From Candidatus Saccharimonadota bacterium (lineage in GTDB: Bacteria > Patescibacteriota > Gracilibacteria > Absconditabacterales > Absconditicoccaceae): 32,000 bases of DNA. Position numbers and translations under genes: made by a program. The stretch spans positions 30,001 to 62,000 of the forward strand of contig OZ246420.1 in assembly GCA_965231145.1 (NCBI GenBank), written 5' to 3'. Of the stretch, positions 2,785-30,559 are shown piece by piece; positions within the stretch are counted from its first letter, which is position 1, and each line of letters opens with the position of its first letter. Below the pieces are notes generated by a model. It was given only the letters and a program-made list of their open reading frames with translations. It was not told the DNA's origin and did no database searches.

Positions 2785-5700
2785 TTATTGTGGTGTAGTT
2801 GGTGGAGGCGGTGTTGTAGTCGTAGTTGTCGGAACTGAAGGTGGTGGAGTAGCAGCAGTATTGTTTGCTGGTACCATAGGTACGCTTCCTGCGTTTGCAT
2901 TGTCTTCTTCTTTTTTCTGCATCCTTGCCTTAAGCGCAAAGATGATAACGAGGATAACAAAGCCACCTCAGAGAATTCCAACGATCCATATGATGATAGT
3001 AAGAACCGTTCCCCATCCGCTTGATTCTGTCGCTGTTGCTACTGGTTCGGGTGTCGTCGTATCTTCTGATGCACATGTTGTACCGTCTATGCTATAGTAG
3101 TTTATGATGCGACATCTTTCTTGTTGTATCTGTGAGAAATCTTCCGCATCGATCTCGTTGTTATCAAAGGCTGCTTGTGCCTCACTCATGATTTTATCGA
3201 GATCGTCTCTTATCACGCCCTTATCTCCATCCGCAGATTCGATACCAATGAAAACATTTTCCACATTGAGTCTTCTTGTTCCCGGGAGAAGGTAGAGAAT
3301 ACCTTGTTTCGCATTTTGATATTCGGTTCCACCGAGGGCAGATTGCCCGCTTTCGTTGGTGAGTAATACAATCGTCTGGATAATGCGTGTTCTGAGATCG
3401 CCTGTTATTTGATCGGGATTTGTATCAAGATAGTCATGTATTTGTATGATGATAGACTGCGCAGATGCCGGGTCTATAAGATTGTTTCTGAGATTGAGGA
3501 GAAGAGTTTTGAGGAATGCCGCACTTTCTGGAGCCGCATCGATAAGCTGGTTAAGTTCATTGTATGTATTCTTCAAACTCTCCGGGAGAGTATTGTCGAA
3601 GTCTATGAATTCGATGCTTACGTCTCTTGTAAGGAGTACCCCATCTTTCTCGTAATATGCTCTTGCGATAGATGAGTCGTACTGAGGAGTATATTTGATC
3701 ATCGTCTCCTGGTTACATGCAATGTCTCTGTCCTGATCTGGAGTCCCGTCTTTATTGCTGTCACTCGTAATGTCCTTGTCGACATAACAGTCTCCTTTTC
3801 CGTCATATGCAACGTAGAAGAGCACGGTATTATCGAGTCCCTTACCGATCTGCACTGTTGCGTTGCCACCTGTTGTTACATCCGGTGCAGGAAGCGTCAC
3901 GATGAGAGCATCGGTTGCAGGAGTTGGTCCAACAATATCTAACAGACCTCTCTGTCTTGAACTATTTCCAAATCTATCTGCAACATCATACTGGATAGCA
4001 TACCTTCACGCTACCGGGTAGACTACAGTAAAGTAACTTCTGTTTTCAATGAGGAGATTACTGTTTGTCTTACAGGTCTTGATGTCGAGACAAAATGTTT
4101 TTGCTGTGATGTCTCCAAGACTGATATCTCTGATAATCACTCTGTCGCCTATGGTTGCATAGAGGAATTGGGCTTTCGTTCACTTCTCTACATTTACTGA
4201 CTGTCATTTTGCGATACCGCTACGGCCTCTGTAGATGACTTTTGCTCTTGGGGTAAAGATACCATCTTTCTCGTAAATATATGTTACTTTAGTGTCTCTT
4301 GTGGAAAGATCGTCTGTTCCGTCTCCATCAAAGTCGTATCTGATAACTCTGTTTGCTGCAAAGTCATCCATATTGGTAAGGACGCTCGACTTTACTTCGA
4401 GGTTCACTGTTTCTCCAACTTTTGCTGTTGGTCTATCAACAATAAGCGTCACGATAGGGATGTCTGGATTTTTGCTGTCTGGTGGAAATACCACGATTGG
4501 TCCATTTCCTATAATGTCTTCGCTTCTTATACCTGTTGCGTCATCATTGTCGTACATTTCCACACCAAATCTATATTCTCCTGCAATTCTCGGAATAGAG
4601 AAGAATACGTACGGCGTATTTCCTGGTGTGACTTTCACTTCCAGTATTCTTTCTGGATCCTGCGTGTTATAGTAGTACCATCTGTATTTGCTTACTCACT
4701 GTACGCCTCCGTCTATATCTCTTGGATTGACTGCGTCAATTCTCACGATAAGCGGATCATAGTTGAGTGTAAAAATATCTTGCTGAGCGCTTTGTCCAAA
4801 TCCAATACCCTGAGTATTTCCATACTGAGGAAATGAGATTCTTAAATTATCCAGCGTTGGTTTGCTGTTTTGTACATTGATCCAGATCTTTGCGCTTGAT
4901 GTTTTTCCTGACTGAGTGTCTTCTACCGTAAAATCTACTACATGACATCCGAGCTGATCGAAGCTGTGTCTCATCTGCTGGTTTTGTGTCACGTCGTCGT
5001 TTGCTGGCTTGAAGTAGTATCTAAGATTGTTTCTTTGGCCATTGATGTTGATAGACTCACTGCCGTCTATGGTTACATCTTCATATCTATCTATATTATA
5101 TGCTGGTACACTTCCAAGATTTGGCTGATTACATACGCCTTCCGGCATCACCACAGTTCCCTGTCTATTGAAGATCCTATATGATGGGATAGGGGCGTCT
5201 CTGTCTCCAATGAACGCCATAGCTTGTACTTCGTTTTCTTCTCCCGATGGAGAGGTCGCAATAAGCTTCACTCTATATGCTCCGCTTTGTTTGTAGGTGT
5301 GAGACGTCTTGTCTGTTTGTACAATGTTTTTTTGCTGATCTCCGAAATCCCACTGGTAACTCACAAGTGTTTTATTTGACTTCACGAGGAAGTTGGTTGT
5401 GTTTCCAAGAGTCGTTGCGATTGGTGTCACGAAAATATATGGTCTCAAAGAAGACGCGATATCGAGCTTCTTTTCGATGCTGGCAATCTTTCCAAACTTA
5501 TCTTTTACGGTAAGTCTAATATTGTATGTTCCTTTTTCTTCAAATGAAACGAGAACTCTTTTTCCATCATCAAATGATTGCTCTACTTTTGCACTTTCAC
5601 CGTTGGAGAAATTCCATTCGTATGAGAGAGCGTCGCTACCATTGGTTACATCGTAGTCGCTACTTGCTGAAGCGTTGAAAATATACTCTGAGGCATATTT

Positions 5701-7044
5701 CCGCTGTTGTGTTGGAAGCATAGTAAACTGAGGAACTGGTGCAGTTGAATCAACAAATACTTTTACCATATCCTGATTTTCTTGTCACTGTTCGTCGGTG
5801 ATCTTGAGAACCACTGTATAGTTTCCTGGCTTTGGAAACTGTTTTTGAATAGTTTTTTGGTTTTGCAACGCTTCTAGTATGTTTCCATTTTCATCATAGA
5901 TCGTCCAAGAGAAGGTCTTAAGATTGGAAATTACCGAATACGATGTGCTTGCATCAAATGAGTATGTCGTTGTTGTGTTTCCCCCATTGGCAGGCGATTG
6001 TTTGATTGTCGCTACCGGATCAGAGATAACTAGCTGATATGTTTTGCTTACAGTATTGCCTTCGTTGTCTCTTACCGAAAGCTTTACGGCGTAGAGCCCA
6101 TTGTTTGGCAATGAAAGCTGTAGTACGTTTGGCGATGTATTTGCAGATGAAACTTGAGAAAATCTATTGTCTCCTTGTATCTGCCATTCGTGCCAGAGGA
6201 TCTGTCTTCCTCCAAGTGGGGTTGTAGCAGAGCCATCAAACCTGATTCCCTTTTGAGCTTCCTGTGTTCCAAGTTTTGTTGGAATCTGGTCGTTCATCTT
6301 CTTGCCATTTGCGAAGATAGCAATGTTTGCTGCTTGAGGAGCGACATTGATGTCTATGACCTGTTCGCCATCGAATATGCCGGCATCAGAATTGTTCACA
6401 CTTCTTACCGTAAGGCGAACCTTGTAGTTGCCTGCCTTTGTAAATGTGTATTTTACGACGCTTCCATTTCCAATGATCTTTTCTTCTCCGTCCACGTCTC
6501 TGTAGTACCAGTAAAAGTGGTCGGTAGGGATCGTAGTGTTTGATGGATCCTGACTGAGCCTTGCATCAAATGTTACCGTAAGCGGCGCTGAGTTAGATGT
6601 AGTATCATAAAGCGCTTCTGCTTTAGGAGTAACGGTATAGTTGGTGTTGATTTCTTTGATGATAGACTGAAGAGGGCCAAAGCAGTTGTTGTTGAACAAA
6701 GAAAAATTGTTGTAATCAAACCCACGAGAAAGAGTCTGCGTTGTGATGAGACATTGTTCATAGACTGTTCTGAACTCTGGTTTTTTAGGAAAATGATCGA
6801 AAACATATGAAAAATTTTCATAGAGTTTTGTGAAAATAAGTGTGTCGATAGAGCTTCCCACCTGCTTACCTGCCTGTATCTTGACGAGAAGATCCTGGAT
6901 ATCGTTCCACTGAGAGCTGATCTTGTAGTTTGGGGTATACTCGACAGGAATTGCTGCTTCGAGGGGATCAGCATGCATGAAAATCTGCGTAAGGGTCAAG
7001 ACCATCCACGATGCAGTGAGAATATGCTTTAGTCGCGATTTCAT
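2785..7044 (-). CDS. Giant surface protein (1419 aa): signal peptide, multiple PKD-like Ig repeats, Asp-rich Ca-binding-like motif, C-terminal TM anchor and Pro/Thr-rich tail
   Basis: Four standard-code ORFs (5785-7044, 4696-5769, 4204-4638, 2968-3900) share one frame and are joined only by TGA (for example 5785, 4696, 4204, 4180, 4006, 2968). N-terminal MKSRLKHILTASWMVLTLTQIF is signal-like. The pattern FDAS.S....W.....G...........G.Y.V.L.V.D..G recurs. DSNKDGTPDQDRD motif. TM segment WGTVLTIIIWIVGILGGGFVILVIIFAL, then KARMQKKEED...PPPPTTPQ. TAA stop at 2785-2787. Confidence 0.85.
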
Positions 7045-7245: not shown

Positions 7246-8145
7246 TTATTTTGCTCCTCTAAATTTGTAAACGACGTAGATAAGCATCATGAGGAAGGTG
7301 CTCATCAGGATAATATTGAGACCAGGACCTGTTTGTGGTGTTCCTTTTCCAGGCACGTCACTGATAGTATCAACTTTAACATTGAGGATTCTCTCACTAC
7401 CAACTGTGTTGCCATTTGCATCCATACCAACGATCTTTACGTTGTATGAACCAGCCTTACTGACAACAAATGAAAACTGTTGATCAGTAGATTTGGCGTT
7501 TCCTACTGACTTGTAGTCAGTGTCGTTGATGTTTTTGAGAGAGAATTGATAGTTACTTACTGCTGCGCTAGCATTCCATTTGAGCATAACATTACTTCCA
7601 GAGACTACGTAGGTGAAATTTACATTTGCATCTGTCGGTGCGCCAACAGATGTGTCTACGGGTGCATCTGGAATGTTGTCTGGAGTGCTACCGAGAGTAG
7701 TGAATGAACCTTCTGTAGAAAAGTCTCCTGAAATTCCATCTTTGTTTGTTGGCTTGATGATGAAGTAGTAGAGGGTTCCTACCTTCAATCCAGTCACCTG
7801 AAGTTGGACTGTTCCCTGGCTTACTGCCGCAGCATCAAGAGTGAACTTTTGTTCGAAAAGATCTTGTGGCTCTGCAACGCTGATACTTTTACCAACGCTG
7901 TAGACCACTGAATACTGGAGGATGTTCTCTCCATTTGCTTTTACGACAGGAGCTTGGATGATAGCTCCCGTTGTTGTCATACCAGTTGCAGTGATAACAT
8001 CTGAAGGAGTGAATCCCCAAGAGATTGTGCTACCGAAAATAGAATCTATCGAAGAATCCGCCGCTAAAGATACAGATGTGATAACTGCAAGTCCTGCTGT
8101 TGCTGCAAGTGTATAGCCCAAAACTTTTTTTGACCACGTTTGCAT
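7246..8145 (-). CDS. Secreted beta-rich (Ig/FN3-like, tentative) surface protein with C-terminal TPQTG cell-wall sorting signal
   Basis: Signal-like MQTWSKKVLGYTLAATAGLAVITSVSLAA. The C-terminus ...GKGTPQTGPGLNIILMSTFLMMLIYVVYKFRGAK has LPXTG-type architecture (motif, hydrophobic stretch, basic tail). True TAA stop at 7246-7248. Confidence 0.8.
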   Translation of the reverse strand: MQTWSKKVLGYTLAATAGLAVITSVSLAADSSIDSIFGSTISWGFTPSDVITATGMTTTGAIIQAPVVKANGENILQYSVVYSVGKSISVAEPQDLFEQKFTLDAAAVSQGTVQLQVTGLKVGTLYYFIIKPTNKDGISGDFSTEGSFTTLGSTPDNIPDAPVDTSVGAPTDANVNFTYVVSGSNVMLKWNASAAVSNYQFSLKNINDTDYKSVGNAKSTDQQFSFVVSKAGSYNVKIVGMDANGNTVGSERILNVKVDTISDVPGKGTPQTGPGLNIILMSTFLMMLIYVVYKFRGAK

Positions 8146-8429: not shown

Positions 8430-8984
8430 ATGCTTACGTCGTCGTACAAGTCACATATGGAAAAAGTAATGCAGCATCTCCAACAGGAATTTTCTACACT
8501 TCAGATCGGAAGAGCATCAACAGGACTGGTGGATAACATAGATGTGTTTATCCCAGCATATGGGATGACGCAAAAACTCCCACAATTGGGAAATGTGTCG
8601 CTTATGGATAGTCAAACCATCAGGATCGAAGCGTGGGATAAGAGCGTCTATTCGTCCATAGAAAAGGCGATTTATGACTCAAATCTTTGACTTACCCCAC
8701 AAAACCAAGGTGAGTATATCATGATCAAAATACCACCTCTCACAACAGAGAGAAGAAAAGATCTTACAAAGCTCGTTTCGAAGATGGGTGAAGATGCGAA
8801 AGTAAAACTCAGAAATGTTCGTCATGATGCTATTGATGAGATCAAAAAAGAGTTTAATGAGAAACTTATTTCTGAAGATCAGAAGAAGGCTTACGAAGGC
8901 GAGATGGACGACATGACAAAAGATTTTGCTTCAAAAATTGATGCTGCAGTAAAAGCAAAATCAGAAGACATTATGAAGGTCTAA
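8430..8984 (+). CDS. frr: Ribosome recycling factor
   Basis: ...[40 protein letters not shown]...ISEDQKK... Two fragments (8430-8690, 8721-8984) share a frame, and the TGA sits on the conserved Gly of the SDLGLNP motif. Confidence 0.92.
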
Positions 8985-9045: not shown

Positions 9046-9102
9046 TGTATTCCCAATACAATAAGGTCATATGCCACTTTCACTCTATCTATTCACTTAG
9101 AG

Positions 9103-9131
9103 AAATCTCCGTAAAACCGGAGATTTTTTTA
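9103..9131 (+). terminator. Intrinsic terminator downstream of frr
   Basis: Stem ATCTCCG (9105-9111) / CGGAGAT (9118-9124) followed by T7. Confidence 0.75.
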
Positions 9132-9144
9132 TATGTTCCATTAT

Positions 9145-9173
9145 TTGCATTTTTTCGTTAAAACCTATACAAT
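9145..9173 (+). promoter_or_regulatory. Candidate promoter of the 1670-aa giant gene
   Basis: TTGCAT (9145-9150), a 17-nt spacer, then TACAAT (9168-9173). Confidence 0.5.
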
Positions 9174-9202: not shown

Positions 9203-12200
9203 ATGCCAAAAAATCCGCAAACAGAAGGGCCACAGAACAAATCGCAAGCCGCTGCTCCTCAGCATCAGCGTTTGTCGAATCATACAATAACCGCTCTCAA
9301 GAAAAGCCTTGCGACGTTTTTGGATAAAGAAAAGAAAAGCTATAAAGATCTCAATAATGACCTTATACAAGCTTTTCTTGCTCGGAATGCGACCCATGAA
9401 AAAGATGGCCTATTGCAAACTTTAACACAAGATATTGCGAGAATAACTATAGCTGCAGATGAAATAGGATGACCTTCTCGTCCAGCATTGAACCTTGCAA
9501 CACAGCAGGCGTTGGTAGAAACGTCTATCGGTAAAATAAAGAGAGCTTTGCAGTGAGCAAAGGTAGAGAAAACTGTGCAAGATGCGTTTGATGTCTTATT
9601 TGCAGCCGATGCTTTCCAGGATATAGAACTTCTGCAGACAGCACTGACTAATTTTGCTGCATGACAACCGACACTTACTGCTGAGCAGAAAAAGGCTCTT
9701 GAGGCTGCGAGTCAGATTTCTCTCGTCGATATGCTTCGTACGCTTGCTGCGAAAAAACAAATTACTGCGGAAGATGTTACGAACTTTGAACAAAATGGTT
9801 TTGTGGGAGCAAGAGCAGAAATTCAAGAGATCGTTCGCGACTTGTTTGGCAAGGTTGTTATTCCACAGGAGATCTCGTCTATCGCAAAAGAGATCGATGA
9901 TCAAGATGCTATTTCTATAAAAACATTTTCACGTATTCCAGGGCTTTCGTCGCTCTTGAAACAGTATGATCTGTCAGCCGACACACTTCGTAACGCAGAC
10001 CCTGCATATGCGACCGTCGTGTCAAATGTGGCAGCGACGTCGCATGAAAAAATCCAAGCTGCAGTTAAGGCTATGGTGAAAGCTATCGAAACTAAAGATC
10101 AGAAGCTGGCTTCATTTCTCAACTCTCTCGTGACGCATAATTTTGTTCTTTCTCAGTGTTCACCAGAAGAACAACAATACTATCTCAATTCTGTGAAGCA
10201 AGGGTGGCTCGATTCGAAAGAGGGAAAGCAAATTTTTGCGCTCTTTGCTTGACTCAATGTGTCTGATGAGCGAAAGAAAAATGTGCTCGATCAACTTTTT
10301 GATCTGAGCAAAGATTCGTTGGAACTGACGAATGACAAGGGACAGACCATGCATATTCCTTTGCGTAAACATATTACACTTAACGGCTGGAAGGGTGATA
10401 CGCTTTCTGAACAACTTGATTTTCCACTGCCATTGGTGTTTGAGATAGATGGAAATATTTTTGAGGGTGACAATGAGTACATCCGCGAAAAGATTGTACG
10501 TATGCTGGGGTCTCATAAGGAAGTAGATGCCTTTGAGTGGAATGGTGTTCGCGTTGTGCCAGGAAATACTGTTCGTATTACTAATAAGCTCAATTCATCA
10601 GGTAAGATAAGCGACAAAGATAATCTGAGCGATTACAAGTATGCAAGAAAAGGTCCCGATGGAAATATTCTCCTTTCAAAAAAGCCATGAGCGACAAACT
10701 ACTTGTCTATTCCTCAGGAAGATATTGCAAACTATACTGTTGAGATAGAAAAACCAACCTATCATATTTCGGGAACGTCGTTCCCATCAGTCGTTGCACT
10801 TCTGATGCAGATGAAGCATGCAAGTGAATTGTCTGCTGCAAAAGCGCAAGAAGGAATTAATGAATGGAATAAGGATATTATCGAAGAGTCTGCGAAGGCA
10901 GAATTTGGTAAGGATGCTGAAAAAGAAGAAGCAAAGGAACAAGCAGAAAAAGTAGAACAACTAATAGATGCTCCTTTCGATGAAAAGATTCTCGAATGAC
11001 TTACTCTACAAGAGCTCAAATATGCTGCAGACTCACTTGCACAAAAGCAAGCTGGGCTTTCTCAGGAAAGAAAAAATATTGAGAAGAATATCCAGCAAAC
11101 AGCAAAATCAATTAACTCGCTGGAAAATCAGATACAATCTTTGGAGCAACAGCAGCCGACTAATGCAAGAAAGCTTCAGCAGATGCAACAGCAACTGCAA
11201 CAAAAGAAGCTTGCTGCTGCTCAGTTACAAGAAAAACTACATGATGTTGCAGAGCAACAAGCTAAAATAGCTTCCCTCCAAAGCAAAGTGCAAGAACAGC
11301 TTGTGAAAAAAATAAACTCGCCGGAAGGCGAGGCGGAAGCTGCTCGTGAAGGAAAAGCGGAGCAGGAACTTGAAGCTGCGCGTAAGGATTTTGGAGAAAG
11401 ATGGAAATGATTATATGGAGATGAGTCTCTTACAAGACCTGAAGTAGGACAGGTTATGCTTTGTCAGTTGCCCGATGCAATTTCGCCATTTCCGGGAGCA
11501 ACCGCAACATGGGTAACCGCAGAGATCGTATGAATTGATAAGGACGGTATCGATATAAAATGGTCTGGTATCGAATGAAAACTTGCAGGCGCTGAAGGTA
11601 GGGTTACAAGAATACATGTGTCATCAAATAGTGTTGAGTCAGCAAGTGGTATGGAAGATTTTATTAAGACTTTTGGTAAGGTCTATAAGCTTCCGAAAAA
11701 TACAGATATGGTTTCATGGGGGATGAAACTGAAAGACCCAAACTCGAAGTGGAAGCTTGATTCGAAATATGCTGACTGGATAAAGATGATGCAACAGAAG
11801 GTCGATTTCAGTAGTATGGTAAAGCAAGACACCAAAGCAAAAGTCCAATATTTTGGGGCTACCGTTGGAGATGAAAGGCTTTGGTATAAGGTGGATTTTT
11901 CGGGGAAACTCGCGACTATTGTTGGTAAAGATAGAACTAATAAGATGGTGAAACAAACCATGGATATGAATGGATTTATGATCTTTGCTGCAGAAAAAGG
12001 ACTTCATCCGTACTCTCAGGAGGAGGTTGATAAGGCAAATGGTGGAGATCAGGATAGCTCTATGAAAGGGCTGGATCGTATCCTTACAGGAAAGGAGGCG
12101 CTAGAACACAATAAATTTATGCAACCCGAAGAAAGAAAGTGAACATGGTGGCAGAGAAATATGGTGTCTATAGCGTCGATTGCATCTATCTGGAAAGATA

Positions 12201-14215
12201 CTAAGGCAAGTGTGAAAACCTACTTTGAAGAAAAACAGAAAAAAGGTATAGCGAGAACGAAAAATAGATTTCTCAAGTCGGGATGATATAAATTATTGCA
12301 GAAAATTCCGTTTGGCGTCGGCGCTGCCATCGGTGAAATGGGCGCGGGTATTGATGCAAAACTCAACACAGAAAAGACAAAAAAAATTAATGAATATAAG
12401 GAAGAGATTGATAAGAATAAGTCAGATGGTGGAAATGGCGGTACAGACTATATTATCAATACTCTTTTTAAAGACAATGATGAGATGCTTAAGAATCCGC
12501 TGAGAGCAGCAGGATATTTTCTGTGGGCGTTGGAGCAGGGTGATCCTTACATCAGATCTCTTGGGCCGTATGAAAAAGATGCCATGTGGGTGAAAGCGAT
12601 TCTCTGAGAGGATGCAGTTTCAGAATATCGAAGATATATGGAGCGTATGAAAGCAGAGGCTCTTACAAGTACTGATGCTGCATTGGCTGTAAAAAAAGCA
12701 GAACTTTGATTTATGCAGTATTATTTTCAGGCGACAGATAAAGAGAGAAAGACAGATCTTATTGGCGTGTTTGGTGAAAAGTACTTTGGGGGTACTCTCT
12801 GAGCTGCCACATATAATTTATGGTATAATAGATCAAAAGTACAGGAAGAATATAAAGCAGAAGCGAGTAAAGGAGCGTTTTCTGATATTGCAATCGATGC
12901 TGTATACAATGATCGTGGTGGAGACTATTACAGCTACGTTGTTCAAGGCAGAATGCGTAATCACTTAGGTGCTCTGCAGGCCATGGCTGAAAAAGTTGGC
13001 CCAAGCAATGAGAATTATAAAAAATGGATGTCAGCGATGATCTATCCTTACATTGCAGGTAAGATGGAAACAAAGATGGCGGACCCTTTTGCTGATGAGT
13101 ATAGGAGCCTTGGAAGAAAGACGGCTTTCCCTTTCACGCAGTATGTGAATGATCCAAGGGCTCAGCAAAAAATTACAATACTGTTGGATGTTTTCTCGAA
13201 GAATTTTGTGAACATTAATTGATCTTCAGGTAAGTTATCAGATAATGTAAAGGAAAAGGATCCTAAAGAGCTAGCGAAAGCATTTTATAAGTGGTGGGAA
13301 CAACACGCTGATGAGCTTCTTAAAATTCTCAATGATCCAGGTGCTCTGATCCGTATAAGAGAGTCGTATAGACCGAAGCCGGGTGAGCGCGATCAGGTAA
13401 AGATGAATACTTTTGCATTGCTCAATGAGTTTATTGAAGAAAAGATGCAAGATACTGACGCAAGTAGATTTAACGATGATTTTTCTGGAGATTCGAAGAT
13501 CTTTGAAAGCCATATCTACAACGCTACTGCAGGGTTGATTTCGTCTCAGATGACAGATAGCTCAAATGGGAACTTCAAGGGAGCTGCTGCGAAAAACGGA
13601 CAGAAACTCTGGGAGGCTATGAACAACAAGATGAGAAATGTAAATCGTGAAGTAGAAAATCTGAAGGCAGCGGGAGACCATGAAGCGGCTGCTCGTATTT
13701 ATGCGTACACCATGAAGAATTTCTTCAGGCAATTTTCTGGACAGCTCTGAGGTGATGAGGCAAAGAGAAAGATACTTGTGTCGCTTAGATATTACGAGCG
13801 TATTAAGGGTGAAACAGACATCGACCCGCTACAGATGTTCATCAGAGGAAAATATGATACCAAGATGAATGGTGAAAGCCTTCCGGATGTGATGAATCAG
13901 GGATTGAAGATCTATGAAAGCTTTCTGCTGAAGCACAAAGACTTGATTGACTATGCGTATCAGAATATGGACCGGAATCTTCTCGAAGTTGCAGTAGGAA
14001 AAGATATGAATGGAAAGAAAGTATACTACCAGAGCAGTATTAAAGAGTTGTCAGAACAGATTTCGAGTCGTAAAGAGATGATGAAGCAGATCAAAATGCT
14101 CCAGGCTGCCGGCATGAGTCCAGGAATGTATAACCCTAATCTTATGGCTGCGTCTGTTGACGATGAGGAAGAGGACGATGAAGATGAAGACGAACGATTT
14201 GCCCGTAGAGCATAA
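9203..14215 (+). CDS. Giant hypothetical protein (1670 aa): no signal peptide or TM segment seen, long central coiled coil, acidic C-terminal tail
   Basis: Ten standard-code ORFs (9203, 9731, 10259, 10703, 11141, 11618, 12296, 12953, 13403, 13778) all share one frame. I read every junction, and the only in-frame stops are about 16 TGA codons. There is no TAA/TAG for 5 kb in AT-rich DNA. Q/E/K-rich heptad-like region near 11000-11400. The C-terminus is DDEEEDDEDEDERFARRA, with TAA at 14213-14215. No enzymatic motif recognised. Confidence 0.8.
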
Positions 14216-14318
14216 ATAATTTTTTGTCACAAAGTAATGACTTATTCGTATCCCTCAGTAGAAAAAGAGTAGAATTGTTGCTGACAAGAGCCGAAAAGGT
14301 AGAAGAATAAGCCATTTA

Positions 14319-14327
14319 TGCTATAAT
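14319..14327 (+). promoter_or_regulatory. Extended -10 box (TGcTATAAT) upstream of the 14344 gene
   Basis: TGCTATAAT ends 17 nt before ATG 14344. No clear -35. Confidence 0.4.
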
Positions 14328-14343
14328 TTTGTGTATTTACTTT

Positions 14344-15624
14344 ATGAATCTCCGCGACTACTTTGAGCAGAAGAAGACGTTGTCTCTAGATCCGACTCGT
14401 AAGATGGAGCTCTATGAGAAGATTGTTCACCAGACGCATGTGCCGGTGAGTATTTTCGCGAGATTTAGTTTTTATACAAAAGTGGCGCTCTATACGTTTG
14501 TCGGACTTATTTTCCTAGCATCGCTTTACATACCATACTTTTCATCGCTTTTCCAGCAGACAGACGGTATCATCACCACCTCTTTAGGAGGAGCAACGGT
14601 ACAGGCTGATTATATCGCGCAGATTATCGAAACGAAGTGAGATATAGCTATTTATAACAATGGAGAGAAGGTGGAAAGTTCACTCTTCCGCGCAGGAGAT
14701 AGGCTTGTCTTGCCAGCAGGAGGTGAAATACTTTTCCATGTCACTACTATCGCTCAGGCAAAAGTAGTATGACCAGCAGAATTTATTGTGGAGAAAAATG
14801 ATCATGGATATAGTATCCATTTGATCAGTGGAAAATACGCAGAGATACAATCTTTAAGCGGAAGCGCAGATAGTGGAGAGGCTCTTGGATTTAAGTCTGC
14901 CCGCATCTCTATCAGACCAAAGAAAGCAGAAAAAGTCCACTTCACCTATACAGAACAAGGAGAGGGTGCTATCATAGATAATCAATGAGACACGGAGCTT
15001 GTTGTCGCTCAGACAAATGATGTTGCCCAAGAAGAAGTGCTTGGAACTCATACGATGGCATCGGTTGCTTCAGCAGAAAGTGGCGCTCTTGTACTCGATA
15101 CTATCAGAGCAACAGGAGATAATATCCTTACTCCGGTACAGGTTGCAAAAGCTCTCTCGGATGCGCCTCATCAAAATGCTGATGAAAAACGCATGATCTC
15201 AGGCGCGGAACACGAAAATATCAAAGCGATCCTTGCTGCCGAGTTTCTTGCAACAGATCTTCAGAAATTCACGACATCATATCTTAAATCAACACAGCGT
15301 GACTACGATATAGCATATACTAATCTCTACAATAAAATTAATCAAATCTATATCATCATGAACATCCCAGTGCCGCAATACATTGTCGATGCGCGCGTGA
15401 CATGATCAGTCAAGGTTCTCATTGCGATGATAGAAAATCTCCTCACAGAGATGGATCAAAATTTCTATATTGCGCAGTCTCATCCAACAAGACTTAAGAA
15501 AGTGCTGGGTTGGCTGTATGCATTGGGTGATAAGAACTTTGGAAGCATGAGCGGATCAAAGCTTTCAGGAACAGACCTCCTAGAAACGTTGGATCTGAGC
15601 GAGTATAAGGAGCTTACAAACTAA
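14344..15624 (+). CDS. Bitopic membrane protein (426 aa), short cytoplasmic N-terminus, one TM, large external domain (FecR-like beta segment, tentative)
   Basis: Four same-frame fragments are joined by TGA at 14638, 14770, 14986 and 15403. TM segment VALYTFVGLIFLASLYIPYF. The post-TM stretch GDIAIYNNGEKVESSLFRAGDRLVLPAGGEILFHV resembles FecR-type domains. TAA at 15622-15624. Confidence 0.7.
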
Positions 15625-15876: not shown

Positions 15877-16764
15877 ATGCACTATGTGACGCTTGAACAG
15901 ATAGATCAATACATTGCCAGAAAAGCCTACGCTAAGAAGCATTTTTTCATGTGGCGTATAGCAAAAGAGTCTTTTCAGTTTGGTGTGATCTTCGTGGGAG
16001 TATTTCTTTTCAGTACAATTGCCGTCAATGCAAACTTGTTTTATCATACGATGAAAAACATGATATCTCCTGTCAGTGCACAGGATGTGGGAAGTACGAT
16101 CAGTGCTCTTCAGATGTCTGCAGAAGAGCAGATGACAAATGAAGCGGTAGATGATCAGGCGCTCTTTTTGCAACAACAGGTAAAAGCATCGTTGGAAACA
16201 AGTAGTGTCTTGCCTGATCATACAGAGACCATGAGTTCATATCTTTCAGCAAAGATGAAAGCTGCAGCTTTTCAGTTCAATACGCTTCCTCCGGAAAACA
16301 GACTTATCATCCCTGCGATCGGAATCAACGCTCCTATCGTCGATGTGTCTGTAACGACAGAACATAAGATAAGACAAGGAGACTTTGATGACGAGCTCTA
16401 TAGTGGGGTGGTGAAGTATCCTTCAACACCGGAGCCAGGAGCTATGGGAAATGCACTCATTTTCGGTCATACGAGTTACTACTGGCGAAAGAAGAATCCA
16501 TTTGCAGAGGTGTTTGCCAAGTTACCAGCACTGCACACAGGAGACATCATCCAGACACTCTGGCATGGACAACTGAGTGAGTTTGAGGTTGTTGCTAAGA
16601 TCGTGGTCAATCCAAACAAGGTTGATGACACTTATATGAAATACACGGATGGAAGCTATATCACACTCATGTGATGTTATCCGATCTGATCAGATGCAAG
16701 AAGAATGCTCATCATAGCAAAGAAAAAAACGACAACATCTACACCTACTTTAGCACGTCCATAG
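15877..16764 (+). CDS. Sortase family transpeptidase with N-terminal membrane anchor (295 aa)
   Basis: TM segment FGVIFVGVFLFSTIAV. Catalytic-His region ALIFGHTSYY. Cys motif YITLM-G-CYPI-G-SDARRMLIIA, a TLXTC-like motif plus conserved Arg, with both Gly residues encoded by TGA (16672, 16687). TAG stop at 16762-16764. Confidence 0.85.
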
Positions 16765-16773
16765 TATCGATCG

Positions 16774-18687
16774 ATGAAAAAGATTTTATGAATAGCAAGT
16801 CTTATAGCATTTTGTACGATAGTGGTGCTTCAGCCATCTTTTGCTGAACAGTGAGATCTTCAGACCCGTATCCAAGATACGATTTCCCGTTATGAAAAGA
16901 TAAAGGCTGATAGCGTGTATTTTGATATAAGCCTGGGAACAGGCTTTGATACTAAGCAGGCTATCGAGACGGTAAACTCTCTTGGGAAGGATGTCTCTAC
17001 CGTGATTGATGAGATAGACGCGGTCCAGAAAAAGAAAAAAAATAATGATAGTAATTATAATGCAGTCCTTGAGCAGGTGAGAAAAGTCGTTATTGATATC
17101 ACCGAAACGAAGAAAGTGGTAACTGATGCTGTGACGAAGATACAAATTGCTAATAAGGATATCGTGACTACGGTAGGAGATTTGCAAGATGCAAGAAAAT
17201 ATATCGCCGCATCAAAGAGTTCACTGAGTCAGCTTGTACAGCTTTTGTATCTGATACAAAACGATTATTATGGCGGCGGAAATATAGATGACATCAAACT
17301 TCTTTTAAAGTCAGACAATATTAGCGATACGCTTTCGGCGGATGATATCATGAATACGCTGACGCTTCAGTTCGATGCGCTAATTGATGATCTGACGATC
17401 CAGCAGGAGAACTATCAGAAGCAATTTGCGAGACTGACGGAGCTCAGAGATGAGTATAAACATACGGTGATCGCCTATGAAGATAAGATGAAGACGCTTC
17501 AGGAACAGAAGGCATATCTGCTGGATTTCTTAAAGCTCTATAAAGCAAACAGGATCGAAATTACTGCAGAGATGAAAAACCTTTTCCAGACCAGAGCACA
17601 GCTCAAAGCGAAGCTTGCGACACTCGTGAGCGGACTTCGTGATTTTAAACACAACCAAGCGTTGATGTCTCATCCTGGTTATCAGGAGTTTCTCAAGCTG
17701 ACGGATGACAGAGAGAAAAGAAAAAATTTTTTCTTGTGGCCAGTGTTGCCGGTGAAGGTAATAGATCAATATTTTTCTACAGGTGTTGATAGTGAAGAAG
17801 GGTTTGTAGGAATCAGAATACATGCAAACCAGTACGATGCGATCTATGCGCCAGCAAATGGTATGGTCTACAAGGTGTCTGACCAGGATGGTATGGCGAT
17901 TAACTGGATTATACTTGTACATAATGACGGATATATGAGTGTGTTTACCAACATTAATCAGGCATTGGTTAAAGAATGAGAGGTAGTAAAACGTTGAGAG
18001 ATGATCGCGCTTGTTGGTGGACAACAAGGAACAAGAGGAGCGTGATTCCAATCACAAGGAGAAGGACTTTACCTCCAGCTCTATAAAAATGGGACACCAA
18101 TAGATCCTCTTTCAGAGATGGACTTGAGTGTTATCCCTGAGGAAACAACATTGCCTACGGTCTATACCGTCAAGCGTAATCTTGATAAGCAGATGAGAGA
18201 TACGCCAATCAAGATGTCTGATGTGCCATTTGTTGATGGAGATACACCAGAACAAAGAACAAGAGACTTCCTGAAGAGATATGCGGCAGGACCATATGCT
18301 ATGTATGCGCTCTGGGTAGCAGCAGCAAAAGATACAAATGTGGATGTAGATCTTGGTATCTGTATCGGTCTTGCAGAGACATCGCTTGGAAGATATTTTG
18401 CATCAGCAAATAATATCGGTAATGTAGGAAATAATGACCGTGGAGATAGAGTGGATCAGGACTCACCACTTGTCGGAGCAAGATCGATTTACTATACGCT
18501 TAACAATAGCTTCTTGGGTGGTTATCATACGATCTACGAGCTTTCGGGCTACGGAAATAAGAATGGCGCAATTTATGCGTCGTCACCATATAACCGGCAG
18601 AAAAATGTAACGAGATGTCTTTCAAGTATCAAAGGATATATTGTTCCGGAGGACTATCCGTTTAGGACATATAAGGTGAACAACTAA
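16774..18687 (+). CDS. Secreted EnvC-like protein: signal peptide, coiled coil, degenerate LytM (M23) domain, C-terminal glycosidase-like (GH73-like, tentative) domain (637 aa)
   Basis: MKKILGIASLIAFCTIVVLQPSFA signal peptide, then a long heptad-like region. The M23-like block is WPVLPVKVIDQYF...FVGIRIHANQYDAIYAPANGMVYKV...GEMIALVGGQQGTRGAGF...LYLQLYKNGTPIDP. It lacks the HxxxD and HxH metal ligands. C-terminal IGLAETSLGRYFASANNIGNVGN resembles the GH73 ALESGWG...NNxFGI motif. In-frame TGA at 16789, 16843, 17977, 17995 and 18043. Confidence 0.75.
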
Positions 18688-24892: not shown

Positions 24893-24937
24893 ATAATTCT
24901 ACATTTTGAATGCTAAATTCTAAATATAATAAGGAAG
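24893..24937 (+). repeat. AT-rich AATTCTAAAT-type module, copy E (3' of the 24467 gene), ends in ATAAGGAAG
   Basis: ataattctacattttgaatgctaaattctaaatataataaggaag. Confidence 0.75.
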
Positions 24938-24946
24938 TATTTATTC

Positions 24947-24974
24947 TTGTTCTGGCAAGTAAAATGTATATACT
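24947..24974 (+). promoter_or_regulatory. Candidate promoter of tRNA-Gly
   Basis: TTGTTC (24947-24952), a 16-nt spacer, then TATACT (24969-24974). The tRNA starts 12 nt later. Confidence 0.45.
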
Positions 24975-24985
24975 TGCTAGTACAT

Positions 24986-25062
24986 GCGGAATTAGCTCAA
25001 TTGGCTAGAGCGCGTCCTTGCCAAGGACGAGGTTGCGAGTTCGACCCTCGTATTCCGCTCCA
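24986..25062 (+). tRNA. tRNA-Gly (anticodon GCC), CCA encoded
   Basis: Acceptor arm GCGGAAT/ATTCCGC. Anticodon stem CGTCC/GGACG with loop TT-GCC-AA. T-arm GCGAGTTCGACCCTCGT. 3' TCCA. This is not the UCA suppressor-type tRNA expected for UGA decoding. Confidence 0.9.
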
Positions 25063-25064
25063 AG

Positions 25065-25092
25065 AAACAACGCTTACGGGTGTTGTTTTTTT
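25065..25092 (+). terminator. Intrinsic terminator after tRNA-Gly
   Basis: Stem ACAACGC (25067-25073) / GGGTGTTGT region (25078-25086, with G-U pairs), followed by T6-7. Confidence 0.55.
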
Positions 25093-25095
25093 GTT

Positions 25096-25123
25096 ATAAA
25101 AAAACTCCTTCTGGGATCAGAAG
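25096..25123 (-). terminator. Intrinsic terminator at the 3' end of the 25117-25701 gene; the hairpin contains its terminal TGA
   Basis: On the minus strand: CTTCTG-atcc-CAGAAG (25123-25108), then GAGTTTTTTTAT. Confidence 0.55.
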
Positions 25124-25701
25124 AAGTACGTGTAGGCCATACACAGGATGTAAATGGCGCTCATGAAGACGCCGTAGCCGGGAATGATGAGATTCTCTTT
25201 GCTCTTTTTTTCTTTGTTGATCTGCCTTATGAGTAAGGCGTAAGAGATGAGATTTACCAGCCAAAAGGTCATGTGAGAAACGTTGAAGTCGCCAGGATGC
25301 GATATGATGGCGGTAATGTACATATAGGCACCAATGCAGTAAGCTGCTATTTGTCCCCATAAGCCAAATGTTCGGTTCTTGACTATCTTGCGTGAGATGA
25401 TGAATGCCCCAGCAGAAATAGCAATCATGGCAACATACGCGCTCTTTAGTTCTCCCATATTGTGAAAGAACTTTGCCGAAAGGAACACGTACGTGACCAC
25501 TTTGGTGGTCCATAGCGCTACGCCTACCTTGTCTTTAGTAAGTAGTATTTCTGTGAGAATAATGCCTGCAGTGATGTTGAACGTCAGGAATCCCCAGAAT
25601 GAGCCATGGCCGCCAGTAGCGAAGAATAGTATGAGAAACGCCAGCGCATTGAGCGCTATCTGAATGGCGTCTCGCTGTGAAATATTTCGTAGTATTTTCA
25701 T
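25117..25701 (-). CDS. Hypothetical polytopic membrane protein (194 aa to the TGA; strict code-25 reading extends to TAG at 24913-24915)
   Basis: Uninterrupted hydrophobic ORF ending ...CMAYTYFF-TGA. Under UGA = Gly, 67 further codons run through the terminator and antisense across tRNA-Gly. The body of the gene is confident. The 3' end is unresolved. Confidence 0.6.
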   Translation of the reverse strand: MKILRNISQRDAIQIALNALAFLILFFATGGHGSFWGFLTFNITAGIILTEILLTKDKVGVALWTTKVVTYVFLSAKFFHNMGELKSAYVAMIAISAGAFIISRKIVKNRTFGLWGQIAAYCIGAYMYITAIISHPGDFNVSHMTFWLVNLISYALLIRQINKEKKSKENLIIPGYGVFMSAIYILCMAYTYFF

Positions 25702-30077: not shown

Positions 30078-30119
30078 TTGCAGCTAGCAACTAGCAATTG
30101 GCAACTAGTATGCTACAAT
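30078..30119 (+). promoter_or_regulatory. TAGCA word-repeat tract + TGCTACAAT module upstream of / overlapping the start of the pilin-like gene
   Basis: tgcagctagcaactagcaattggcaactagtaTGcTACAAT. Related to 466-528 and 2712-2770. Confidence 0.4.
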
Positions 30120-30559
30120 TTATCTACTATCTGCTGCCTGCGTTCTGTTGCAATGATAAGTACTTTTGCTATAGTGAGAGTATTTATTGTTTGCAGAAAA
30201 CTATGGTGCAAAAAGTGTATGCTGAAGAGGCCGCGGGTATTGATTGTGGGACAAATGCGGAAAAACTGGCCAACGGCCAGTGTACGTTCAATATCTATAA
30301 AACCGTGGGAATAAGAGAGCAAAATCAGGAACCAGACGCGAAGGCGTTTATAGAAGATATTTTTTTGTCTGCGACGTTTTTTATTGGTACTGTAGTGGGT
30401 GTGGGGCTGATTTATTCAGGTCTTATGTATATCCTTGCAAAAGATGACGGTGCAGCCGGTAAGGCGAAAAACGGTATTAAATGGTCTCTTATCGGACTTG
30501 CGCTCGTGATGTTCAGTTACACGATTATTAGGCTCGTGCAGTATATTGCTCAAGGCTAA
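30110..30559 (+). CDS. TrbC/VirB2-like small membrane protein (the 'type IV secretion pilin' type common in CPR genomes), 149 aa
   Basis: Possible long signal peptide ending KVYA/EE. Then two hydrophobic helices separated by a charged loop: FIGTVVGVGLIYSGLMYILAKDDGAAGKAKNGIKWSLIGLALVMFSYTIIRLV. The start is uncertain (ATG 30110 overlaps the -10-like box; ATG 30203 is the alternative). TAA stop at 30557-30559. Confidence 0.6.
   Translation: MLQFIYYLLPAFCCNDKYFCYSESIYCLQKTMVQKVYAEEAAGIDCGTNAEKLANGQCTFNIYKTVGIREQNQEPDAKAFIEDIFLSATFFIGTVVGVGLIYSGLMYILAKDDGAAGKAKNGIKWSLIGLALVMFSYTIIRLVQYIAQG

Follow-up and report, generated by a model that had tools for sequence, protein, structure and literature searches.

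Large cytoplasmic proteins that are non-enzymatic and dimerise through a coiled coil are known from several bacteria, as in the case of HMW2 of Mycoplasma pneumoniae, Scy and FilP of Streptomyces, crescentin and DivIVA. Such proteins are restricted to particular lineages and diverge fast, and HMW2 is found in an organism of reduced genome that is attached to its host cell and builds a specialised attachment structure, which is the setting we liken to the one described here. SR1/Absconditabacteria and Gracilibacteria are recoded, ultra-small bacteria that are host-dependent or predatory. Large orphan proteins are common in CPR (Candidate Phyla Radiation) genomes, and to our knowledge almost nothing is known about the cell biology of SR1/Absconditabacteria and Gracilibacteria. 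Here we describe a gene at positions 9203 to 14215 of a 32,000-nucleotide stretch of DNA (the window) from contig OZ246420.1 of an Absconditabacterales assembly (GCA_965231145.1). Its product of 1670 amino acids, called the giant below, resembles the proteins named above in being large, presumably cytoplasmic, lineage-restricted, fast-diverging and apparently non-enzymatic, with a coiled coil through which it would dimerise. We propose, with a probability of roughly 40%, that the giant is a clade-specific cytoplasmic scaffold or adaptor, dimerised by its coiled coil and tied to the envelope or to an attachment apparatus.

No sequence or fold similarity was found between the giant and HMW2, Scy, FilP, crescentin or DivIVA, and its coiled coil, about 100-190 aa, accounts for 6-11% of the length instead of most of it. 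The giant is therefore better described as multi-domain, with the coiled coil at its centre, and the term 'coiled-coil protein' used in an initial annotation of this DNA was overstated. The bulk of the giant is made up of two globular regions, and its helical domain of ~600 aa has no counterpart among the coiled-coil scaffolds. The EAGR-box and intermediate filament (IF)-like models of Pfam gave no match to it. Significant heptad periodicity was observed solely at residues 601-702 (nt 11003-11308), with a maximum of 0.82 against a 95th percentile of 0.68 in shuffled sequence. In this respect the giant agrees with coiled-coil cytoskeletal or scaffold proteins, a class defined by function and not by homology. 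The position agrees with the earlier placing of the coiled coil at roughly 11000-11400, and the peptides quoted for it, LENQIQSLEQQQ...QQMQQQLQQKKLAAAQLQEKL, were located at about residues 637-690. The heptads are interrupted by a proline at QQQP, and AlphaFold predicts four long helices at about residues 545-740 (numbering of the P0001 model described below) with a predicted local distance difference test score (pLDDT) of 79-89.

The gene itself is as follows.

9203..14215, + strand: giant open reading frame (ORF); 1670 aa under genetic code 25, 16 TGA codons read as Gly, TAA stop at 14213-14215, with full-length colinear orthologues

The initial annotation had described a single frame of 5013 nt with about 16 TGA codons read as glycine, and each of these statements was borne out. 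We counted exactly 16 in-frame TGA codons and a terminal TAA in one uninterrupted ORF that has no internal TAA or TAG; the long ORFs of the window are open only when TGA is a sense codon. On aligning the giant with its orthologue P0001, positions with TGA in either protein were found opposite Gly 19 times and opposite Trp once, and in the same alignment TGG-encoded Trp faced Trp in 16 of 21 cases. The reading of TGA as Gly (code 25) is thus supported. TGA makes up 15% of the Gly codons of the giant, which is unremarkable against the range of 0-28% across the window. An identical copy of the giant is present in the independent Logan assemblies L003 and L004, the first of which shows 0 differences over the whole cluster. 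The giant is one genuine gene.

Relatives of the giant were sought by several routes. A word-indexed search of a 5.8-billion-protein index returned P0001 (1678 aa, from two Logan assemblies) as the sole close homologue, 55% identical. In these word-indexed searches the 8000-candidate prefilter was saturated by low-complexity words and negatives are uninformative: a profile of the C-terminal family brought up close fragments alone, and the N-terminal profile came back empty, missing P0001 itself. An exhaustive phmmer search of 1.84 billion cluster representatives, in which the query was the conserved C-terminal part of P0001 (916 residues), gave 25 matches (14 at E <=1e-10), among them giants of 1523-1921 aa that are alike over ~750-850 aa with 21-29% identity. 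In all, the full-length relatives number about a dozen, and the giant of the window (the target) is colinear with 11 other full-length members (phmmer E 1e-54 to 0). Four long relatives re-translated from DNA hold 66-85 in-frame TGA codons and a single TAA stop at 27-33% GC, and three more are Trp-rich, as expected where TGA is read as Trp; TGA is recoded in the genome of every member open to examination. One such genome, JAZHDC..., was published as an Absconditabacterales (SR1) metagenome-assembled genome (PMC11008151).

An independent census was performed against GTDB species representatives, using the neighbouring ribosome recycling factor (RRF) as the bait and not the giant. Six loci were returned, five of them with flank on the relevant side of frr, and a TGA-rich giant ORF adjoined frr in four of these five (phmmer E against the target 1e-54 to 5e-185). 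The record titles of the giant-bearing loci include 'Candidatus Absconditabacterales', a 'Candidatus Peribacteria' label and 'Patescibacteria group bacterium'. A GTDB scan using conserved peptides of the giant gave no match, and the 7-member family alignment was too divergent for pattern design. A literature search found no description of the family. On the strength of these sequence comparisons, we assign the giant to a family without an earlier name, restricted to Patescibacteria that have recoded TGA to Gly (Absconditabacterales/SR1 and relatives). The initial claim that it has no recognisable family stands as far as profile and fold searches go, all of which came back empty, and has to be amended in that the protein is part of this small unnamed family.

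The ten largest proteins of Vampirococcus lugosii include VAMP_54_69, a 'hypothetical protein' of 1723 aa, and a PKD repeat-containing protein of 1396 aa (PMC8080830, Supplementary Table 1). These match in size the giant (1720 aa in locus L013) and the PKD giant of the cluster described below, a likeness by size alone.

Structures were modelled with AlphaFold2 for P0001, with TGA read as Trp at 26 positions, and residues of the target were mapped from it. The following regions could be delimited.

9203..10882, + strand: N-terminal region, residues 1-560; a disordered polar leader of ~30 aa, then mostly helical with a small beta-rich patch (about residues 380-525)
10883..11422, + strand: acidic linker and central coiled coil, residues ~561-740; 120-247 aa long across the family
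11453..12025, + strand: conserved beta-module, residues ~751-941, from AlphaFold model m0c44a01bb571 (residues 41-231) and family alignments
12053..12184, + strand: linker, residues ~951-994, probably disordered (pLDDT <50 at model residues 241-284)
12161..13972, + strand: two long basic helices and an all-alpha globular domain of ~500 aa, residues ~987-1590; the best predicted part, pLDDT 85-95
13985..14212, + strand: disordered C-terminal tail, residues ~1595-1670, with an acidic run and an aromatic/basic tip

The C-terminal model (P0001 residues 721-1678, from a 37-row alignment) had a mean pLDDT of 75.8 and a predicted template modelling score (pTM) of 0.60, with the blocks of the helical domain at 85-95, and the N-terminal model was poor (pLDDT 59.6). 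In the predicted structure the beta-module opens with a small 5-stranded beta-barrel (residues ~751-805), which is followed by an alpha/beta unit (beta-beta-beta-beta-alpha, residues ~826-941) carrying the motifs VDFSSM, YFG, WYK and F.FAAEKGL.PYSQEEVD; its identity to distant members is 22-41%. Within the family the length of the helical domain varies least (567-651 aa), at 21-34% identity. The N-terminal region is 47-49% identical to that of close orthologues and 14-24% to that of distant ones. As judged from the alignments, the conserved core thus consists of the beta-module and the ~600-aa helical domain, and the N-terminal half and the coiled coil vary. The target carries what defines the family, namely the beta-module (VDFSSM/YFG/WYK/PYSQEEVD) and, C-terminal to the coiled coil, the helical domain (AGYF..., PY.R.L, MWV), in a code-25 genome. 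Family-invariant columns are almost all W, F, Y or G, which suggests that structure rather than catalysis is conserved. The long helices past the linker are basic (20 Lys or Arg against 14 Asp or Glu at residues 1001-1100), and the net charge of the giant overall is -10.

An extra insert of ~60 aa was observed just before the coiled coil in the AT-rich subfamily (L008 3139-8904, L010 6094-11460, L013 4577-9739 and P0019). Its motif, YTxxQ[IL]KRKxxILxxAG[LF][ST]xxQxxxL[LI]RAGI[AT]G, is conserved in the AT-rich members, is lacking in the target and has no Pfam match.

The tail of the giant reads DDEEEDDEDEDERFARRA, an acidic run followed by an aromatic/basic tip, much as the initial annotation had it (an acidic run and a basic tip). 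An acidic and aromatic tip is present at the C-terminus of 13 of the 15 family members and is missing in P0018 and P0006. In passing from a disordered linker to an acidic run with an aromatic residue, the tail resembles the SSB-Ct DDDIPF, the tails of the archaeal/eukaryotic ribosomal P-stalk and the C-terminal peptide of FtsZ. The likeness to SSB, P-proteins and FtsZ is one of composition only, the rest of the protein being unrelated; the motif is not strictly conserved, and the subclade of the target adds a basic tip (..RRA/..QAA/..RAA). Alanine-rich ends (..RRA, ..QAA, ..RAA or ..SAA) were noted in members of this subclade and in P0018 (window 14150-14212 in the target). They recall ssrA-type ClpXP degrons and, by analogy, may hint at regulated proteolysis.

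No above-threshold match came from Pfam, NCBIfam, PHROGs or PADLOC, whether searched with the whole protein, its halves, six domain segments or five other members, and no weak profile match recurred between divergent members. PDB sequence profiles searched with the C-terminal pair, the C-terminal family and the N-terminal family yielded nothing with E <0.2. With Foldseek the C-terminal model had no match at E <=0.001 in either the PDB (best E 0.11, query-normalised template modelling (TM) score <=0.12) or BFVD (best E 0.038), its top matches being generic alpha-solenoids or helical hairpins; the N-terminal model matched generic helical hairpins alone in the PDB (E about 1). The alpha-solenoid adaptors of the ARM/HEAT/PUF type (beta-catenin, importin-alpha, Not1, Puf-A) are the top PDB matches of the helical domain, and they share with it the look of a large all-alpha protein-binding domain. 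These matches are non-significant (E 0.25-1, probability <=0.12, TM <=0.17) and no repeat periodicity was seen with Pfam, so that the likeness is one of gross class only. We regard the protein family and its predicted fold as new; this claim of novelty covers family and fold, not mechanism.

The initial annotation had found no signal peptide, transmembrane helix or catalytic motif, and we reached the same result. By a hydropathy heuristic the giant has no transmembrane helix (best 19-residue Kyte-Doolittle mean 0.99) and no signal peptide, its N-terminus (MPKNPQTEGPQNKSQ...) being polar. A motif scan for Walker A, HExxH, DEAD, CxxC and LPXTG was empty in the target and its close orthologues. 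The giant also shows none of the features of a sortase substrate, having no hydrophobic N- or C-terminal segment and no LPXTG-like motif. So far as motifs and profiles tell, it is non-enzymatic.

The genes and signals around the giant are listed below.

2785..7044, - strand: PKD-repeat surface protein of 1419 aa, with signal peptide and C-terminal transmembrane anchor; in the conserved cluster
7246..8145, - strand: fn3/PKD surface protein of ~300 aa, ending in a sorting signal (TPQTG, hydrophobic segment, basic residues); in the conserved cluster
8430..8984, + strand: frr, ribosome recycling factor (RRF E 1e-52); directly next to the giant in 9 of the 11 family loci
9098..9131, + strand: intrinsic terminator of frr, upstream of the giant ORF; a hairpin (free energy -17 kcal/mol, z -6.05) followed by a T-run
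9144..9173, + strand: promoter-like hexamers, TTTGCA-18-TACAAT or TTGCAT-17-TACAAT; a plausible placement, without statistical support
14344..15624, + strand: bitopic membrane protein of 426 aa, no Pfam family; adjoins the giant in the subclade of the target
15877..16764, + strand: sortase (PF04203, E 2.6e-17); syntenic
16774..18687, + strand: EnvC-like M23 peptidase (PF01551, E 1.2e-18) with signal peptide, helical N-terminal half and M23 domain; syntenic

That envelope genes lie next to the giant, as first proposed, was confirmed by Pfam for the sortase and the M23 peptidase, and the bitopic membrane protein adjoins it. The giant was also said to follow the terminator of frr and to have its own promoter. 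The hairpin and T-run at 9098-9131 agree with the former, and since this strong terminator separates the two genes, frr and the giant are not co-transcribed here. As for the promoter, hexamers are indeed present at 9144-9173, but promoter-like matches are equally common in shuffled sequence (10 seen in the region against 11.0 +/- 3.2), and they carry no evidential weight.

The giant adjoins frr in nine of the eleven loci with context, at a distance of about 200-260 bp, in tandem in the 41-44% GC subclade of the target and divergently in AT-rich subclades. The PKD giant and the fn3 anchor are found on one side in seven of the nine frr-linked loci, the flank being missing or incomplete there in L008 and L010. 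On the other side, sortase and/or M23 peptidase are present in seven loci with enough flank, and L012 fits as judged by its neighbouring ORFs alone. The PKD giant, fn3 anchor, sortase and M23 peptidase stay syntenic with the giant among members that are ~25% identical, despite local strand flips, and the giant is single-copy within each fetched locus. Its conserved position beside frr across the clade indicates a vertically inherited gene and not a mobile element. An important role had been presumed for the giant at the outset, along with a call to examine its distribution and synteny; the family is confined to a TGA-recoded clade in which the surface cluster is kept, and this conservation and synteny across a deep clade argue that the giant matters to the cell.

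The fn3 protein ends in GKGTPQTGPG-LNIILMSTFLMMLIYVVY-KFRGAK, and the TPxTG sorting signal is kept in nine correctly delimited orthologous loci. Its hydrophobic segment is almost invariant in these nine, even with the rest of the protein ~40% identical. Given this signal and a sortase gene at a distance of 7.7 kb, a sortase is encoded in the cluster together with what is likely its substrate. A homologue of the bitopic protein was found in the distant family genome L008 at 16546-17856(-) (E 6e-41), 7.6 kb from the giant and not adjacent to it. The EnvC-like peptidase has a C-terminal extension of ~190 aa past the M23 domain (...KGYIVPEDYPFR) that matches no Pfam family and ends in a clade-conserved ..KGY[IV]VPEDYPFR.. 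motif. The PKD protein carries a Pro/Thr-rich cytoplasmic tail of ~50 aa in the subclade of the target only.

Other genes of the window identified by Pfam encode a cupin, ArgRS, ThrRS, RuvX and RsuA. A small ORF of the type IV secretion system (T4SS) pilin family lies at 30098-30559(+) (PF18895, E 1.6e-6, 28.6 bits against a cut-off of 26.6). A tRNA-Gly(GCC) at 24986-25062(+) was detected by ARAGORN and a local Rfam scan (64.6 bits) and was missed when the whole window was scanned with Rfam gathering thresholds; the tRNA overlaps the 3' part of a mechanically over-extended code-25 ORF at 24913-25701(-).

When the same pairs of genomes were compared, the giant was the fastest-evolving gene of the cluster. 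Its identity to the target was 57% in L006 (neighbours 62-83%), 32% in L011 (neighbours 60-84%) and 26% in L013 and L015 (neighbours 40-53%). The exposed PKD protein of 1419 aa keeps 74-77% identity to L006 and L011, far above the giant, which is unusual for a surface protein. The L011 orthologue (10699-15594) stands at 32% although its six syntenic neighbours are about as similar to those of the target as in L006; the comparison suggests a lineage-specific acceleration or replacement by a divergent allele.

Based on the above, we propose for the giant a scaffolding or adaptor function in the cytoplasm. In this view the coiled coil would mediate dimerisation or lengthen the molecule, a conserved partner in the cell would be bound by the conserved C-terminal core, and the acidic/aromatic tip could serve as a short docking peptide, with the variable N-terminal half making lineage-specific contacts. 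Its likeliest site would be under the membrane, where it would organise or anchor the envelope or host-attachment machinery encoded nearby. A scaffold is preferred over an exported effector because the giant is single-copy, vertically inherited and positionally fixed.

Several observations weigh against a scaffold. The gene neighbourhood is the sole link of the giant to the envelope, and frr, its most constant neighbour, encodes a translation factor, so that the adjacency may reflect positional inheritance and not functional coupling. P0018 (L009) lies in a different neighbourhood, and in the recoded genome L014 frr has no giant beside it. Coiled coil makes up roughly one tenth of the protein, unlike in classical bacterial cytoskeletal proteins. 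It evolves much faster than all its neighbours, which is unusual for a core structural hub and fits host interaction too. The structure modelled is that of orthologue P0001, with its 26 TGA positions as Trp, and not that of the target.

A bolder form of the scaffold proposal, which we regard as distinctly unlikely, is that SR1/Gracilibacteria-type epibionts have a clade-specific apparatus for attachment or predation, of which the giant forms the cytoplasmic core. As such it would be a scaffold of a new type, built on a new helical fold, coupled from inside to the sortase-anchored and PKD surface proteins, and its N-terminal half would track partners specific to host or lineage. If this holds, the terminal-organelle cytoskeleton of mycoplasmas may be comparable to it in function, not in ancestry.

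Among the alternatives, the one that survives best, though we consider it unlikely, is that the giant is a secreted or injected effector or a component of a surface fibre, used on the host or prey. It would leave the cell by a non-Sec route (e.g. type IV or type VII-like), with the disordered ends or the acidic tail as export signal. The unusually fast evolution keeps this idea alive, and a gene that is the fastest of its cluster, at 32% identity in L011 with neighbours at 60-84%, shows a pattern typical for host-interaction proteins. Both termini of the giant are disordered, it lies inside a surface/attachment gene cluster without having a signal peptide, and relatives in culture are predators that depend on contact and carry giant surface proteins (PMC8080830). 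However, effectors are usually patchy, multi-copy or mobile, whereas the giant is present once per locus, positionally fixed and colinear over very deep divergence, and its C-terminal region is the most conserved part, unlike the variable tip of a toxin. We detected in the protein no domain of a toxin, an enzyme or a known secretion signal. A match to the type VII secretion system (T7SS) family WXG100 (PF06013, E 0.038) is sub-threshold at 14.7 bits against a cut-off of 27.3, lies in the wrong position (residues ~1452-1490), contains no WXG and is absent from P0010; no EssC-like gene was found within the window. The T4SS-pilin-like ORF at 30098-30559 is in the same window but 16 kb off, and there is no secretion ATPase in the cluster. 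The tightly packed helical domain of ~600 aa would moreover be a poor substrate for unfolded export.

It is improbable, in our estimate, that the giant is a nucleoid- or ribosome-associated organiser. Here the adjacency to frr, the most constant neighbour (9/11 loci), would point to a role in translation or with RNA or DNA, nucleic acid would be the ligand of the beta-beta-beta-beta-alpha module, and the acidic tail would provide a regulatory tip, DNA-mimicking and SSB-like; SSB-type proteins are known to dock through acidic tails that end in an aromatic residue. The basic long helices after the linker fit this idea, as do weak Foldseek matches of the beta region to Pur-alpha (probability 0.41), Agenet/Tudor (0.38) and ModE, but all structural matches are non-significant (E >=0.1, TM <=0.28). 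No OB, KH, S1, HhH or other nucleic-acid-binding family was matched in Pfam, also when scanned domain by domain, and the net charge of the protein is negative. The strong terminator between frr and the giant speaks against co-transcription, and translation factors and their partners are normally slow-evolving, whereas the giant is the fastest gene of its neighbourhood.

We find it very improbable that the giant is a divergent member of a well-known long helical family, be it an SMC/MukB/Rad50-type ATPase, a phage tape measure or another prophage or defence protein. SMC, MukB and Rad50 resemble it in exceeding 1000 aa and in having a central coiled coil with a break between globular ends; they differ in their Walker A/B and signature motifs, the coiled coil of the giant is 5-10 times shorter, and Foldseek matches to SMC arms had E about 1. 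Tape measures likewise are very long and helix-rich with a Gly-rich segment, often without annotated domains, but the giant sits in a clade-conserved chromosomal cluster of housekeeping and surface genes, with the same context in at least 9 genomes. Large size and a central coiled coil aside, what speaks for such an origin are low-scoring matches. The NCBIfam SMC match (E 0.0024) is confined to the coiled coil, at 15.6 bits against a cut-off of 729.4 for TIGR02169 and 13.6 against 567 for TIGR02168, and close members show no Walker A/B and no Pfam SMC_N or AAA match. Tape_meas_lam_C (PF09718, E 0.075, residues 13-58) reached 13.6 bits against a cut-off of 23 over 46 residues, and no tape-measure PHROG was hit, the best PHROG (E 0.07) being a family of unknown function. 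Two tape-measure proteins were among the BFVD matches at E 0.19-0.31, but Foldseek gave no match at E <0.03 in BFVD or <0.1 in the PDB. PADLOC-DB returned 0 families for the giant at E up to 0.1, which places it outside the anti-phage defence families, and IMG/VR held no relative of it. The surroundings are chromosomal housekeeping genes (rsuA, ruvX, frr, ArgRS, ThrRS, tRNAs), syntenic across the clade, with no phage genes nearby. The initial annotation had named SMC-like and tape-measure proteins as the families to look for; by profile and structure searches neither identity applies, and both are rejected on their sub-threshold scores, the lack of Walker A/B and the non-phage context.

An artefact, in which several genes were fused by an assembly or frameshift error (a concern already voiced in the initial annotation) or a spurious ORF is open merely because TGA is a sense codon, has next to no probability and is refuted: table 11 does split the frame into 17 pieces and public gene calls show it as 12 small ORFs in L003, but TGA aligns to Gly in orthologues, at least 11 assemblies made independently from different samples share a colinear ORF of 1523-1921 aa that contains 12-85 in-frame TGA and invariably one TAA stop, conservation extends over the full length, and confident AlphaFold domains run across TGA positions. 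The rest of the probability, beyond the scaffold and these four alternatives, falls to functions outside those considered.

The gene for the giant takes up about 0.45% of a ~1.1-Mb genome, holds one chromosomal position across a deep clade and has no match in sequence or predicted fold. Together with the PKD giant, the sortase, its TPxTG substrate and the M23 peptidase, it makes up a concrete, testable module in organisms for which co-culture systems now exist. If it is an exported effector, the giant would be a candidate predation factor; if it is a true scaffold of the envelope or of attachment, it would give a handle on how the host contact site of these bacteria is built.

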